Of a stretch of DNA of 64,000 nt, positions 29,573-39,417 are shown piece by piece; within the stretch, counting starts at the first letter, position 1, and each line of letters opens with the position of its first letter. Both the position numbers and the translations under genes were made by a program. The notes below the pieces were generated by a model. The model was given only the letters and a program-made list of their open reading frames with translations, was not told the origin of the DNA and did not search any database. The DNA is from Escherichia phage slur02. The DNA lies in sequence record NC_028927.1; one strand, written 5' to 3'.

Positions 29573-30046
29573 TTATTTGAACGATTTAACGTACTGAATA
29601 GAACCTTTACTATTTACAAAGGCAATTTTACCATTTTTATTATACATGGTAGCAGTACGTTGATAACCATAAGTTTGTTTACCAGATTGATAACCAACTA
29701 ATGCGAAATTATCTTCGCCCATTTTATTCTGTTTAGCGCGAATGCGTTCATGACCATGTGCCATAAGAACCTTAGCATCACCGGTTGCAATGGATCGACG
29801 AGTTTTTTCATCTTCAACTGTATTAACAAAGTCGTCAAATGAATCAAATTTAGCATGAGATTTATTATACAGTTTTCCATCTACTGCATAATTATATCCC
29901 TGTACATCCATCTCAACTTCTGTACCATCATCCAATACAGCAGTGATTTTTTGACCTTTTTTAAATTTCAAAAGATCAGTAAAAGATTCAGCAATAATTT
30001 GAGAATTAATAGCTGCTTCAGTGATAAATTCTTGATATGTTTTCAT
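29573..30046 (-). CDS. Internal-protein-like capsid protein
   Basis: 157 aa; N-terminal MKTYQEFITEA resembles the T-even capsid targeting sequence cleaved by prohead protease. Confidence 0.6.
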   Translation of the reverse strand: MKTYQEFITEAAINSQIIAESFTDLLKFKKGQKITAVLDDGTEVEMDVQGYNYAVDGKLYNKSHAKFDSFDDFVNTVEDEKTRRSIATGDAKVLMAHGHERIRAKQNKMGEDNFALVGYQSGKQTYGYQRTATMYNKNGKIAFVNSKGSIQYVKSFK

Positions 30047-30062
30047 ATGATTCCTTTAATTT

Positions 30063-30380
30063 TTATTCTTTAGGAAAATTTTTAGAATATGCGTCGTAAA
30101 GCTTATTTCCAATACGACGAAAAACTCTAGCTGCAAAACGATTTTCTGGGTTTTTAATCATAATTTGCATCATATAAGTACCCGCGTCTGAAAGAGCTTC
30201 TTCATAGTACCCGTTAATTTCTTTAAGAGTCCTACGTTTACCACCAGGACCATCAACAGTGATTTTCCATTTACCTGTAGAAGTGCGACTCGGCGGCTCA
30301 ACTTGTTCAATCCAAATATAACCGCCTTCTACACGTTGTCCTGCAGCAGATTCTGCAATAAATTCTTGATATGTTTTCAT
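30063..30380 (-). CDS. Internal-protein-like capsid protein
   Basis: 105 aa; N-terminal MKTYQEFIAESA; basic. Confidence 0.6.
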   Translation of the reverse strand: MKTYQEFIAESAAGQRVEGGYIWIEQVEPPSRTSTGKWKITVDGPGGKRRTLKEINGYYEEALSDAGTYMMQIMIKNPENRFAARVFRRIGNKLYDAYSKNFPKE

Positions 30381-34658: not shown

Positions 34659-34684
34659 AATGTTTTCCTTGTGATGATAAGTCT

Positions 34685-34713
34685 ATAGTAACGCCTTCAT
34701 ACTTAGATGTAAA
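34685..34713 (-). promoter_or_regulatory. Early (sigma70-type) promoter
   Basis: Minus strand GTTTACA-17-TACTAT then AGACTTATCA. Confidence 0.55.
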
Positions 34714-34867
34714 CTATTTCAACATCGCCTTTTGCTGTTTTATAACCTTCAGCCCAAGATACAACCGAGTTTTTATCTGAAGATTCAAATTCTGGCATTG
34801 GGCTTTCGCCAATGTTCACGCAGTATGTTTCTTCATTTTCGTCGAACCAAATAATTAAAGTAGTCAT
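34703..34867 (-). CDS. Hypothetical 54-aa protein
   Basis: Own reading (MTTLIIWFDENEETYC...); GGAG RBS; promoter at 34904-34932. Confidence 0.3.
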   Translation of the reverse strand: MTTLIIWFDENEETYCVNIGESPMPEFESSDKNSVVSWAEGYKTAKGDVEIVYI

Positions 34868-34903
34868 TTATTTCTCCGTTTCTGTATTTGTTTTGATAAG
34901 TCT

Positions 34904-34932
34904 ATAATAACACCATCCTTGGTGTTTGTACA
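34904..34932 (-). promoter_or_regulatory. Early (sigma70-type) promoter
   Basis: Minus strand TGTACA-17-TATTAT then AGACTTATCA. Confidence 0.45.
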
Positions 34933-34935
34933 CAA

Positions 34936-35199
34936 TTATTTCATATTATTGAAATATTCTTCTGCGATTTCGTCGTTATCATGGTAAACTTTAGAAGACA
35001 GTTTAACATAACCTTCAGCAGTGAACATGTTAATCACAACCTTTACAGTATACCACTGACCATCTTCATTACCCATTACTGCGTAAGTTTCAAACATCGG
35101 ATGGTCAGGACCGATAACTTTAATATCATTCACTGTACGACCGAAATCTTCTGAAACACATTTCATAAAGAAGTTGAACAGCTCACCGTAATTATCCAT
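34936..35199 (-). CDS. Hypothetical protein
   Basis: ORF track ORF trimmed to Met 22 because the extension (MPFHGTIQLS) translates the promoter at 35243-35271; GGAG RBS. Confidence 0.5.
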   Translation of the reverse strand: MDNYGELFNFFMKCVSEDFGRTVNDIKVIGPDHPMFETYAVMGNEDGQWYTVKVVINMFTAEGYVKLSSKVYHDNDEIAEEYFNNMK

Positions 35200-35242: not shown

Positions 35243-35271
35243 ATAGTACCATGGAAGGGCAAGGATGTAAA
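35243..35271 (-). promoter_or_regulatory. Early promoter with conserved leader
   Basis: Minus strand GTTTACA-17-TACTAT then ACAACTATCAAC. Confidence 0.6.
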
Positions 35272-35400
35272 CCGTTTTGTGAAAAAATTTTTAAAAAGTT
35301 TTGGGGAATTCTAGGGCAGGAAGGGGAAATCAAAGGATAGGATAATATATTATAAAGGGTAGAAACTAAATGATGTCTAGAGAGGCCTGGAAAGGCCTAG

Positions 35401-35436
35401 ATACCAAAAAGCCCCAACCTTTCGGTCGGGGCTAAG
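35401..35436 (-). repeat. 36-bp direct repeat copy 1 (contains terminator hairpin)
   Basis: ATACCAAAAAGCCCCAACCTTTCGGTCGGGGCTAAG, identical to 35960-35995; minus strand folds GCCCCGACC-GAAA-GGUUGGGGC followed by UUUUUGG. Confidence 0.85.
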
Positions 35437-35440
35437 AATG

Positions 35441-35914
35441 TTATTTGATTTGTTTAGCAGACCAAATGCGATCTTTAATAATTTTTTGGATGTCTTCAAC
35501 ATACTCTAGGTCATGAGCATGTGGATTATCTTTGAAACTATAAGCACGAGCTAGTTTTTGGCCTTCAGTTTTGATTACTAAAAGCTCTTTAAGGATAGCT
35601 TCATATTTGGAGATAATTCCTTTAACAATATTTTTTTCTTGTGCAGCTTTAGGATCTGCTTTAGGAGCAGGTTTACCCGAAGCCTTTGCAAAAGCAGCGC
35701 CAGTAGCAACTAAACTTTTCCAGGCCATACTAACTGCATTTCCCGTAAATCCTTCCGCTTTCATGTCGCGTGCGAACTGGAATCGCGATTCATCAGAAGC
35801 ATCTTTATAGGAATATTTACCCGCTGTAATGGCTGCTTTTGCGACAGCTTGAATTTCGGTGCTAGATGCTTCATTTAACACCGCTTCATTTAAAAATTGA
35901 GTATATGATTTCAT
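35441..35914 (-). CDS. Internal-protein-like gene in a repeat-flanked cassette
   Basis: 157 aa; N-terminal MKSYTQFLNEA resembles the capsid targeting sequence; Ala/Lys-rich; flanked by identical 36-bp repeats. Confidence 0.6.
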   Translation of the reverse strand: MKSYTQFLNEAVLNEASSTEIQAVAKAAITAGKYSYKDASDESRFQFARDMKAEGFTGNAVSMAWKSLVATGAAFAKASGKPAPKADPKAAQEKNIVKGIISKYEAILKELLVIKTEGQKLARAYSFKDNPHAHDLEYVEDIQKIIKDRIWSAKQIK

Positions 35915-35954
35915 CTTATTTCCTGTTTTAATTCGTGGATTTAATATACTACTA

Positions 35955-35962
35955 TATTTATA
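35955..35962 (-). promoter_or_regulatory. Late promoter motif upstream of cassette gene
   Basis: Minus strand TATAAATA about 40 nt upstream of ATG at 35914; overlaps edge of repeat copy 2. Confidence 0.45.
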
Positions 35963-35995
35963 CCAAAAAGCCCCAACCTTTCGGTCGGGGCTAAG
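35960..35995 (-). repeat. 36-bp direct repeat copy 2 (contains terminator hairpin)
   Basis: Identical 36-mer on the other side of CDS 35441-35914. Confidence 0.85.
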
Positions 35996-36039: not shown

Positions 36040-36300
36040 TTGTACGAAACGCCGGGATTCGAACCCGGTTATTAAGCAGTTGACGCTACTCAATATTTTT
36101 AAAAGGCCATATCTCGACCATATCCGAACGTTCCGTCAAAAACGCTACTCGGCTTACGGCAAAGATATTTCCTCGAATCGATAATTCGGTGCGCCGTTTC
36201 TGCTGTGATGTAAGAGGGCATCAATAAACGCAAAGATTATTAACGCAATTCCTTACTCAGGGAACATCAGTCCGACGACTTACCGGTAGCGACCCGGTTT
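36040..36300 (-). ncRNA. Possible tRNA-like stable RNA region; boundaries not determined
   Basis: Noncoding stretch downstream of the tRNA cluster containing a T-arm-like element (CCGGG-TTCGAAT-CCCGG, 36052-36068) without a canonical cloverleaf. Confidence 0.3.
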
Positions 36301-36301
36301 C

Positions 36302-36652
36302 TTAATATTCTTTTAAAGCATCAATCTGTTTACGGCGTTCACGCCATAAATCAATTGCTTCATACGCGGATTCAACATTTCGAATTGGACGGCATTTATA
36401 TAAAGATTTGTGATTTTGATATTGCGTAGATAACGGAATTTTATCTAAAAGGTCTTTACGTTCAAAGTATTCGTAACCATCTAAGCCAAATGAACGATTT
36501 TTGAGAAATTGCCAATGACCAAATTCGTTTTGAATATAAATATAATCCGCATGTTGATAAAGTAAATTAATTTCACGAAATGAGATATGTTTTTCATATT
36601 CATTGAAGTAAAATGTTAAATCATGAACTACTAAATAAACATTACCTTTCAT
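36302..36652 (-). CDS. Hypothetical protein next to tRNA cluster
   Basis: ORF track 116 aa; no homing-endonuclease motif seen. Confidence 0.45.
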   Translation of the reverse strand: MKGNVYLVVHDLTFYFNEYEKHISFREINLLYQHADYIYIQNEFGHWQFLKNRSFGLDGYEYFERKDLLDKIPLSTQYQNHKSLYKCRPIRNVESAYEAIDLWRERRKQIDALKEY

Positions 36653-36670: not shown

Positions 36671-36746
36671 TGGTCGAGGCAGTAGGGATCGAACCTACGA
36701 CCTAGGACTTAGAAGGTCCTTGCTCTTCCTTCTGAGCTATGCCCCG
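36671..36746 (-). tRNA. tRNA-Arg (anticodon UCU), CCA encoded
   Basis: Manual cloverleaf: acceptor CGGGGCA/TGCCTCG, T-arm GTAGG-TTCGATC-CCTAC, anticodon loop CUUCUAA. Confidence 0.75.
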
Positions 36747-36750
36747 TAAT

Positions 36751-36826
36751 TGGGGTGACCGATGGGAGTCGAACCCATGACTACGAGAATCACAATCTCG
36801 AGTTCTACCAACTGAACTACGGCCAC
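36751..36826 (-). tRNA. tRNA-His (anticodon GUG), CCA encoded
   Basis: Manual fold: acceptor GTGGCCG/CGGTCAC, discriminator C, anticodon stem CGAGA/TCTCG with loop UUGUGAU; no G at -1. Confidence 0.6.
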
Positions 36827-36940
36827 ATTAATACCTACTCCAACAATCAAGATGTCTTCACACGAAATTAAGAGAAGAGTGATCAGTTCAACCCCTATAA
36901 TCGCGTCAAGTAGATATTAATGTGACAGTTGTCACAAATT

Positions 36941-37015
36941 TGGCGGACGTGATAGGATTCGAACCTATAACCAATCGCTTAACAGGCGATCGCTCTACCA
37001 TTGAGCTACACATCC
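36941..37015 (-). tRNA. tRNA-Asn (anticodon GUU), CCA encoded
   Basis: Manual fold: D-arm GCTC-AATGGTA-GAGC, anticodon stem ATCGC/GCGAT with loop CUGUUAA, T-arm ATAGG-TTCGAAT-CCTAT. Confidence 0.65.
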
Positions 37016-37019
37016 AAAT

Positions 37020-37106
37020 TGGTGGGGAGTGGTGGAGTCGAACCACCCGAGTCGCAATGACAATGAATTTACAGTCCACACCGCTACCTCTACGGGATAA
37101 CTCCCC
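37020..37106 (-). tRNA. tRNA-Tyr (anticodon GUA), long variable arm, CCA encoded
   Basis: Anticodon loop CUGUAAA, T-arm GGTGG-TTCGACT-CCACC, acceptor GGGGAGT/ACTCCCC. Confidence 0.6.
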
Positions 37107-37118
37107 TAATTCATAATT

Positions 37119-37193
37119 TGGTGGCCCTGGGTGGAATTGAACCACCATCTGGCGATTATGAGTCGCTTGCTTGAACCTTCCAGCTACAGGGCC
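37119..37193 (-). tRNA. tRNA with CAU anticodon (Ile in T4, or Met), CCA encoded
   Basis: Anticodon loop CUCAUAA; T-arm GGTGG-TTCAATT-CCACC; acceptor GGCCCTG/CAGGGCC. Confidence 0.65.
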
Positions 37194-37194
37194 T

Positions 37195-37270
37195 TGGTGC
37201 TGATTGACGGAATCGAACCGCCGACGTCCTCATTACAAGTGAGTTGCTCTACCTACTGAGCTAAATCAGC
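37195..37270 (-). tRNA. tRNA-Thr (anticodon UGU), CCA encoded
   Basis: Anticodon loop CUUGUAA; acceptor GCTGATT/AATCAGC. Confidence 0.7.
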
Positions 37271-37276
37271 AAAAAC

Positions 37277-37366
37277 TGGCGGAGGCGATAGGATTTGAAC
37301 CTATGAGTCGCCGGAGCGACTGCCGGTTTTCAAGACCGGTGCATTAAACCACTCTGCCACGCCTCC
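37277..37366 (-). tRNA. tRNA-Ser (anticodon UGA), long variable arm, CCA encoded
   Basis: Anticodon stem CCGGT/ACCGG with loop CUUGAAA; variable arm hairpin; acceptor GGAGGCG/CGCCTCC. Confidence 0.7.
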
Positions 37367-37368
37367 AG

Positions 37369-37442
37369 TCTCCATACAAGGATTTGAACCTTGGACCTCC
37401 TGATCCCAAATCAGGCGCTCTACCAAACTGAGCTACACGGAG
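37369..37442 (-). tRNA. tRNA-Pro (anticodon UGG), no encoded CCA
   Basis: Anticodon stem CCTGA/TCAGG with loop UUUGGGA; 3' end only 2 nt from tRNA-Ser 5' end. Confidence 0.7.
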
Positions 37443-37452
37443 TAAATTAAAT

Positions 37453-37526
<74 letters not shown>

Positions 37527-37531
37527 AAATT

Positions 37532-37618
37532 TGGTGCGAGAAGTGGGACTCGAACCCACAAGGAAATCATTCCGCAGCATTTTAAGTGCTGTGCCTTTAC
37601 CAATTTGACCATTCTCGC
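37532..37618 (-). tRNA. tRNA-Leu (anticodon UAA), long variable arm, CCA encoded
   Basis: Anticodon stem CAGCA/TGCTG with loop CUUAAAA; acceptor GCGAGAA/TTCTCGC. Confidence 0.7.
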
Positions 37619-37619
37619 G

Positions 37620-37692
37620 CTGGGAATAAAGGACTCGAACCTTTGCATCCTGGAATCAAAATCCAGTGCCTTACCAACTTGGCTAATTCCCA
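37620..37692 (-). tRNA. tRNA-Gln (anticodon UUG), no encoded CCA
   Basis: Anticodon stem CTGGA/TCCAG with loop UUUUGAU; 3' end 1 nt from tRNA-Leu 5' end. Confidence 0.7.
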
Positions 37693-38083: not shown

Positions 38084-38502
38084 CCTTCATCAACAATAGT
38101 ATGAGTATGGGCATTTACAATTTGCCACCAATCAAAGCGATTAGAACCATACATCGGTTTGTTTTCATTTTCTTTGATAATATCACGAAGTTCATCTTCA
38201 GTAGCGGCTTTCGCGATTAAATCAGCATATCCACCACGAGGATAATAATTATCACCTGCAAAAAGTAAAAAGTTTGGTTTAATGTTATTGAACTCTTCAA
38301 GAGTAATAACTGTTCCTGATGGTAGTTGAACAATCTCTACATATTTATATCCTAATTTTTGAGCAGCATCTACTGCTTCAAGCAAAGTATCATGAGCCCA
38401 TCCAATTTGACAACCTGGCTTTTCAGATGGATTAGCCTGATAATCCGCGTACACTTTATACATTCTATTCACCTTTAGAAATTTTATCCGTAACGACAGC
38501 AA
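38080..38502 (-). CDS. Hypothetical protein
   Basis: ORF track 140 aa. Confidence 0.5.
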   Translation of the reverse strand: MLSLRIKFLKVNRMYKVYADYQANPSEKPGCQIGWAHDTLLEAVDAAQKLGYKYVEIVQLPSGTVITLEEFNNIKPNFLLFAGDNYYPRGGYADLIAKAATEDELRDIIKENENKPMYGSNRFDWWQIVNAHTHTIVDEG

Positions 38503-38650
38503 TTAAACCAATTAAAAATGCTACTACAAGTGAAAAAACATTTTCTGCTGTAGTTAATAATCCGCATATAAATCCAACAAACATTGAAAAACTAAAAGCA
38601 GAAGCAGAAATTGCAATAGCAACATTTCGAATTAATTCACAGCGTTTCAT
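38465..38650 (-). CDS. Hypothetical small membrane protein
   Basis: 61 aa, single hydrophobic helix; promoter at 38679-38707. Confidence 0.4.
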   Translation of the reverse strand: MKRCELIRNVAIAISASAFSFSMFVGFICGLLTTAENVFSLVVAFLIGLIAVVTDKISKGE

Positions 38651-38678
38651 TTTATTCTCCTCAGTAGTTGATAGGGTA

Positions 38679-38707
38679 ATAGTATCACTACTAAAACCCT
38701 ATGTAAA
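38679..38707 (-). promoter_or_regulatory. Early promoter with conserved leader variant
   Basis: Minus strand GTTTACA-17-TACTAT then TACCCTATCAAC. Confidence 0.55.
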
Positions 38708-38720
38708 CAACTTTGTGAAA

Positions 38721-39417
<697 letters not shown>

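Follow-up and report, generated by a model that had tools for sequence, protein, structure and literature searches.

A terminator-bounded late gene between rnaC and e.8 of Tequatrovirus probably encodes a new family of T4-type internal proteins

Introduction

Can an internal protein of the T4 type, that is, one packaged in the head and injected, be encoded outside the loci at which such proteins have been described? The question is raised by a 157-aa ORF in the window (the whole 64-kb stretch of Escherichia phage slur02 that was analysed), where it stands between two copies of a 36-bp repeat and begins with what looks like a capsid targeting sequence. [quoted passage not shown] IPII and IPIII had long been taken as filler until specific targets were found (PMC12373910). 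A 2025 study of Ip1–3 still counts two loci, 'the two Ip loci in T-even phages'. Here, we set out the evidence that the 157-aa ORF probably represents a new family of T4-type internal proteins at a third variable Ip locus, rnaC-e.8.

Results

Position of the gene

Across this region, the window is 100% identical to Escherichia phage slur04, and 97–98% identical to RB51, RB68, wV7 and phiD1; the phage belongs to the Tequatrovirus group. A preliminary description, made from the letters alone, had reported a minus-strand ORF starting MKSYTQFLNEA, and this is present exactly where it had been placed (Table 1); the two ORFs offered there for comparison (29573–30046 and 30063–30380) both begin MKTYQEFI, as claimed. 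Indeed, as an observation, that description is confirmed in every element. It had pointed to the hypervariable internal-protein loci of T-even phages, but judged by annotated relatives, the gene lies elsewhere, in the gap after the tRNA cluster, between rnaC, with which the tRNA operon ends, and e.8; eleven tRNA genes are found just upstream of its region. The rnaC and rnaD stretches matched no family in Rfam. The early promoter of e.8 sits in the right flank of the indel described below, a flank that is also kept in T4, and is outside the cassette.

The gene is, therefore, outside both of the described Ip loci, namely ipI (57B–trna.4) and ipII/ipIII (e–denV), although residence in one of these is typical of internal proteins rather than strictly defining. 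In the window, the ipII/ipIII locus holds two canonical Ip genes, these being the two comparison ORFs, and the product of the first matches PST IpIV in its first 40 residues and in length. The ipI locus is empty: trna.4 (38465–38650) and 57B (38721–39176) are 70 bp apart (38651–38720), whereas T4 has ipI there, and PST has ipV and ipVI. These two genes at 29573–30380 and the 157-aa gene are the only Ip-type genes in the window.

Several further features of this part of the genome may be recorded. The eleven tRNA genes, including those for His, Asn and Tyr, occupy 36671–37692, and the homing endonuclease gene segB is missing from this stretch; T4 combines segB with eight tRNA genes, and in RB68 segB is truncated. 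Between tRNA-Arg and rnaD, at 36302–36652 on the minus strand, there is a 116-aa ORF that is absent from T4, where rnaD abuts tRNA-Arg; it corresponds in position to RB68_139 and to PhAPEC2 gp135 (RB69ORF150c-like), and represents another indel of the tRNA region. Additionally, a 50-nt direct repeat with 72% identity (34669–34718 and 34888–34937) reads, on the minus strand, as a T4 early promoter (GTTTACA-N17-TACTAT/TATTAT) before successive small ORFs, which is the kind of repeated regulatory element discussed as PeSL.

Table 1. Features of the rnaC-e.8 interval. Positions are those of the window unless a related locus (L number) is named; a slash marks a predicted cleavage site.
Feature	Position	Strand	Basis or remark
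rnaC (species 1 RNA), conserved left flank of the indel	36043-36181	minus	coordinates transferred from the RB68 and T4 annotations
36-bp repeat, upstream copy, intrinsic terminator	35960-35995	minus	10-bp stem, GAAA loop, U-run
Late-promoter motif TATAAATA	35955-35962	minus	follows the U-run of the terminator immediately; ATG 40 nt further on
Shine-Dalgarno AGGAAA	35919-35924	minus	4 nt before the ATG; read from the sequence
Complete CDS, 157 aa, phrog_2280	35441-35914	minus	starts MKSYTQFLNEAVLNEA
Predicted capsid targeting sequence and propeptide, codons 1-15	35870-35914	minus	MKSYTQFLNE/AVLNE/A, two L-x-E sites for the gp21 prohead protease
36-bp repeat, downstream copy, the gene's own terminator, isolating it from e.8	35401-35436	minus	repeat search, folding, terminator scan
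e.8 early sigma-70-type promoter	35243-35271	minus	TTTACA-17-TACTAT with extended TG; promoter scan
187-aa gene directly after the 157-aa homologue	L004 3089-3652		
187-aa gene directly after the 157-aa homologue	L006 3600-4163		
187-aa gene directly after the 157-aa homologue	L008 3600-4163		
187-aa gene directly after the 157-aa homologue	L013 3591-4154		

Two terminators and a late promoter

The two 36-bp copies are identical, and they are the sole two matches in the window even when three mismatches are allowed, with none found in 100 shuffles. On the coding strand, each reads AGCCCCGACC-GAAA-GGTTGGGGCT followed by TTTTTGG; folding gives ~−20 kcal/mol (z ~−3.4 to −4), and a consensus scan calls a terminator, such that both copies are, as had been proposed, minus-strand terminators with a loop of the GNRA type. 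The upstream copy ends the tRNA–rnaD–rnaC transcription unit, and alignment with T4 and RB68 shows that it is at this position that the single copy of T4 stands. Just past the downstream copy, at 35384–35400 on the minus strand, is a second short hairpin, AGGCCTTTCCAGGCCT, which is conserved in other loci, T4 and RB68 among them, its changes being compensating or neutral. In two related loci (L010 and L012), the terminator upstream of the homologue has the stem GGCCCTTCC/GGTTGGGCC in place of the GCCCCGACC/GGTTGGGGC of the window; this variant includes a pair-keeping change on both arms, which supports selection for the hairpin.

The late motif TATAAATA overlaps the upstream copy by 3 nt, taking in the last three bases of the repeat; an overlap had been claimed from the outset. 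The motif by itself is not enriched in this AT-rich window (14 found versus 10.1 expected). It stands directly after the U-run in eight of 12 related loci and in RB68, with variation in the adjacent bases, and at the same junction there are variants in the others: AATAAATA in three Mosigvirus-type loci, and CATAAATA in L015. A late motif after the terminator is kept across Tequatrovirus, Mosigvirus and Jiaodavirus loci. A promoter scan of the coding strand found no sigma-70-like site upstream of the ORF. Because there are strong terminators on both sides and e.8 has its own early promoter, the 157-aa gene is predicted to form an isolated late transcription unit.

An indel at which T4 is in the minority

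When the window and RB68 are aligned with T4, the latter runs from the rnaC flank through a single terminator to the e.8 flank with no gene between, and the two former carry 559 bp more, which is exactly the gene plus one copy of the terminator. PST is also empty at rnaC-e.8, with a single terminator, and T2L and RB3 each give one unbroken match to the empty junction. The comparison with T4, T2 and RB genomes that the preliminary description had called for, therefore, places the boundary of a 559-bp indel at the repeats. Moreover, the cassette is not present with identical flanks in all relatives, as empty sites exist, and the two flank copies differ by 1–4 nt in RB68, L007, L009 and L013. In the window, L006 and L008, the two copies agree in full. 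In PhAPEC2, they agree in the stem, the loop and the first U's, and constitute a variant of their own with two mismatched stem positions. In Jiaodavirus, the two flanking terminators are unrelated to each other. Given the differences in several genomes and the unrelated terminators of Jiaodavirus, perfect flank identity is a trait of some genomes and no fixed signature, consistent with ongoing recombination or conversion.

Some 510 phage records encode the 157-aa protein, compared with 668 records that match the junction; the latter number does not amount to an exact census of empty and occupied sites, as BLAST merges the flanks of an occupied site into a single place. On these numbers, the occupied form is the majority state (roughly 70% of related records), and T4 is in the minority. 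The tRNA cluster is followed directly by a homologue in Mosigvirus (PhAPEC2), Jiaodavirus (KpV477), Tegunavirus (fHe-Yen9-01) and one IMG/VR contig, and this position is seen in every genus examined, of which there are at least four. An exhaustive HMMER profile search of 1.84 billion representatives gave 13 hits, all of them family members or fragments and none annotated; those with a visible source are from T4-like phages, and several others have no stated origin.

These data bear on the suggestion that the gene is a recently acquired foreign moron, which inserted at the rnaC terminator and duplicated it in the process. The perfect identity of the 36-bp flanks in this genome, the one-copy empty site of T4 and the self-contained promoter–gene–terminator layout are all as such an event would leave them, but we consider it very improbable: the GC content of the gene (37.8%) and its GC3 (24%) match those of neighbouring genes, the few hits in the HMMER search trace, where a source is visible, to T4-like phages, the gene has the same post-tRNA position in Tequatrovirus, Mosigvirus, Jiaodavirus and Tegunavirus, carriers are numerous relative to the records matching the junction, and the Jiaodavirus terminators bear no relation to one another. 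What stands of the 'self-contained moron' of the preliminary description is the layout, as the gene is served by a conserved late promoter and a terminator of its own, and sits between genes that are adjacent in T4; what does not stand, in view of the native composition, the frequency among related records and the position common to at least four genera, is the notion of a rare acquisition from a foreign source. On the same three grounds, loss from T4 is more likely than recent acquisition, and we infer that the gene is an old resident, the single-terminator form of T4 having arisen by recombination between the direct repeats.

Two homologues depart from the general pattern. That of KpV477 (L005, 2495–3020) is interrupted by an in-frame TAA that follows codon 78, and beyond it the frame still matches the 177-aa proteins of sister phages; it is either a pseudogene or the result of a sequencing error. 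A 94-aa sequence from a Logan contig of 2898 bp (P0013) has a trna.3-like N-terminus joined, at IIKEN/PHAH, to the last 30 residues of the family; this chimera would fit a deletion of the entire tRNA region between trna.3 and the gene, or an assembly artefact.

A leader with the determinants of T4 capsid targeting

In IPIII, ten N-terminal residues are enough to target the protein to the head; targeting depends mostly on positions 4 and 7, and processing mostly on 8 and 10, with gp21 cleaving after L/I-x-E (PMC9026906). The leaders of T4 are MKTYQEFIAE/A in IPII and IPIII, and MKTFKEFTSTTTPVSTITE/A in IPI. In the MKSYTQFLNE of the 157-aa protein, Tyr4 and Phe7 occupy the targeting positions, and the predicted processing site L8-N9-E10/A11 is followed by a second, L13-N14-E15/A16. 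The likeness to a T-even capsid targeting sequence that was noted initially, thus, extends to all of the T4 functional determinants (Y4, F7, L8 and E10). Three Met starts in the window fit a pattern comprising an aromatic residue at position 4, F7, L/I/V-8 and E10, where 0.027 would be expected; they are those of the 157-aa ORF and the two canonical Ip genes.

All full-length family members have a similar leader with differing spacer residues, down to ~25% identity; examples are MKTYNEFLMTE/A, MKSYAEFLTE/Q, MKFKEFLAE/A, MLKFNEFLAE/G, MINFSDFLNE/G, MKSFSSFLNE/G and MITFNDILAE/G. F7 is invariant, and position 4 is Tyr or Phe in most members. The leader of the window looks like a four-residue duplication of a shorter form.

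The 98%-identical orthologue in phage fD1 (phiD1, HE956711), g140, was scored as particle-associated at the strict threshold by LC-MS/MS of virions, and has no T4 counterpart (PMC8309999, Table S3). The dataset is, however, unspecific, listing 113 of the 277 phage proteins, including DenV, lysozyme and NudE, as well as 672 host proteins (PMC8309999). The virion association of the orthologue is taken from the literature and, coming from such a proteome, at best roughly doubles the odds; it proves nothing.

Might the product then be a late cytoplasmic protein that is never packaged, the leader likeness being coincidental or serving some other purpose, and the mass-spectrometry signal being contamination? 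The many non-structural phage proteins and hundreds of host proteins in the fD1 preparations would allow for this, and two points that weigh against an internal protein would be accommodated, namely that the gene lies outside the two recognised Ip loci, and that the leader differs from MKTYQEFIAE at five of ten positions (S3, T5, Q6, L8 and N9). Nevertheless, we judge it improbable, since all four critical positions agree, the pattern having a chance expectation ~100-fold below the observed count, the leader has been kept through ~75% divergence of the remaining protein, and the neighbouring, unrelated 187-aa gene (see below) bears a similar leader. A packaged and processed internal protein, as the leader would predict, is the reading that we hold to be reasonably probable.

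The mature protein

After cleavage, the predicted mature protein would have 142–147 residues, a mass of ~15.5–16 kDa and a pI of ~9.4–9.5; the full-length protein contains 21 Lys and 26 Ala, a composition like those of IPII and IPIII. The AlphaFold model (mean pLDDT 74) has a low-confidence leader and two helical domains: residues 18–75 form a confidently predicted, small helical N-terminal domain, which is the best-conserved part of the family, and residues 88–154 a C-terminal helical hairpin, with a disordered Ala/Lys/Pro-rich linker (76–88) between them. Across the family, the linker is kept in composition and not in sequence, as expected for a DNA-contacting tail.

The protein had been called uncharacterised, and sequence, profile and structure searches support this, none of them having led to a known protein or fold. 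Pfam returned sub-threshold noise only, and the PHROGs match, phrog_2280, has no assigned function. In a Foldseek comparison of the model with the PDB, the best E was 0.95, with nothing beyond generic hairpins, and the search against BFVD recovered family members only. BLASTP of the mature part against Ip1, Ip2 and Ip3 gave nothing better than E 1.4, hhalign against IPIII aligned the leader region alone, and no significant similarity was found between the mature part and the other Ip proteins tested or the neighbouring 187-aa family. Nearly all database records of the family are entered as 'hypothetical protein'; one homologue, from a Klebsiella phage, is labelled 'Internal head protein', a label that rests on BLAST annotation alone. 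Our literature search on the family found nothing apart from the fD1 table in PMC8309999.

It is at this point that a packaged protein with a general physical role has to be weighed, i.e. one that neutralizes charge and organizes or helps to eject the condensed DNA, and that has no specific host target. The internal-protein lysines of T4 heads contact DNA phosphates (PMC3012670), and the basic Lys/Pro/Ala linker of the family is preserved in composition but not in sequence; moreover, the conservation of the family across genera, unlike the narrow distribution of Ip1–3, could point to a general DNA-associated role over a strain-specific inhibitor. We regard such a role as unlikely: T4, T2 and PST manage without the gene, so any structural role is dispensable, the N-terminal domain, as the best-conserved part, suggests a specific partner, and IPII and IPIII were likewise thought to be filler before their targets emerged (PMC12373910).

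A modular interval with a second candidate

In the loci that we fetched, the rnaC-e.8 interval takes several forms: it is empty, holds a gene of the 157-aa family alone, or holds this gene together with either a 187-aa gene or a 184-aa membrane-like ORF. The modules join at terminators; after the 187-aa gene the stem differs, and the tail, GGGCTTTTTGGTATCTAGGCC, is the same. The product of the 187-aa gene (RB69ORF149c/RB14ORF136 family, P0064) begins MKTYAEFLTEA; the gene, which in many phages comes right behind the homologue of the 157-aa gene, is equipped with a AATAAATA motif and a terminator of its own. Judging by these sequences, it looks like another uncharacterized internal protein; its annotations all read hypothetical, save for a lone, stray 'isopenicillin N synthase-like dioxygenase'. 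In fHe-Yen9-01, the relative of the 157-aa gene comes after a gene distantly related to the 187-aa family (25% identity, E 1e-5). A C-terminal module common to the 157-aa and 187-aa families was considered and dropped, as hhalign and BLASTP align the leader only.

Discussion

Mechanism and significance

In the mechanism that we propose for the 157-aa protein as an internal protein, the upstream terminator would halt early and middle transcription from the tRNA operon, and late transcription would start from the gene's own TATAAATA promoter and end at the second copy of the terminator. The leader would send the protein into the prohead scaffolding core, where we infer that the gp21 prohead protease cuts after Glu10 and/or Glu15, giving predicted N-termini at A11 (AVLNEASSTEIQAVAK) or A16 (ASSTEIQAVAK) without SYTQFLNEAVLNEASSTEIQAVAK. 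The basic mature protein of ~16 kDa would remain with the packaged DNA, probably via the Ala/Lys/Pro-rich linker, and enter the cell with it. Once inside, it would most likely neutralize an early-acting host defence; the analogy is with Ip1, Ip2 and Ip3 as blockers of distinct GmrSD enzymes, and we give a specific anti-defence role about half the weight that we give to packaging and processing. As for the unit itself, the two terminator copies would make it deletable, and possibly transferable, by homologous recombination.

A bolder reading is that rnaC-e.8 is a third, unrecognized arsenal locus, that the proteins of the 157-aa family are injected and inhibit a host defence different from the GmrSD variants that Ip1–3 block, and that terminator-bounded units move as recombination modules. 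Taken as a whole, this is speculative, and we would rather bet against it; were it true, conservation over phages of Escherichia, Klebsiella and Yersinia, which are expected to differ in DNA modification, would imply a widespread and modification-independent target.

The field describes two Ip loci, and a family with a similar leader is present in ~500 sequenced phages, many of them therapy candidates; its absence from T4 may explain why it has escaped notice. As a candidate for an injected counter-defence protein it is ready to hand, and T4 offers a natural knock-out background. Moreover, the locus is a clean case, found in nature, of a deletable gene module enclosed by terminator repeats.

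Comparison with known systems

The morons of lambdoid phages are autonomous promoter–gene–terminator units that lie between genes adjacent in relatives. The 157-aa unit resembles them in having its own promoter and terminator, and in sitting between rnaC and e.8, which are neighbours in T4; it differs in its native composition, in its predicted late lytic expression rather than expression from a prophage, and in belonging to a family that keeps its position from genus to genus and seems restricted to T4-like phages.

Repoila et al. (1994) reportedly described hyperplastic internal-protein regions in T-even phages. Like these, rnaC-e.8 is bounded by conserved sequence, its ORF content varies between phages, and its ORFs carry an Ip leader and are separated by similar regulatory sequences where exchange appears to occur; the difference lies in the position, between rnaC and e.8.

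The PeSL (promoter-early stem-loop) cassettes of T4-like phages (Comeau 2014, PMC4122927; also Arbiol 2010) have been proposed as sites of recombination, also through mini-circles, by which sequences are deleted, inserted or swapped (PMC4122927). In common with these, the present locus has short conserved promoter and stem-loop elements at indel boundaries in a variable region. The arrangement is, however, distinct: in PeSL, the start codon is preceded by a stem-loop and an early sigma-70 promoter, whereas here an intrinsic terminator is followed by a late (gp55-type) promoter.

Finally, the mature domain of the 157-aa protein has no detectable similarity to any of T4 Ip1–3, the gene lies after rnaC, and the family is kept over several genera; Ip1–3 are injected GmrSD inhibitors, and for the 157-aa protein a role of this kind is a proposal. 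With Ip1–3, it nonetheless has in common a leader of the type MK(T/S)(Y/F)x(E/Q)F(I/L)xE that includes the protease site L/I-x-E, a small basic body rich in Lys and Ala, mature domains that are unrelated between members, and a dispensable gene that is present in some close relatives and absent from others.
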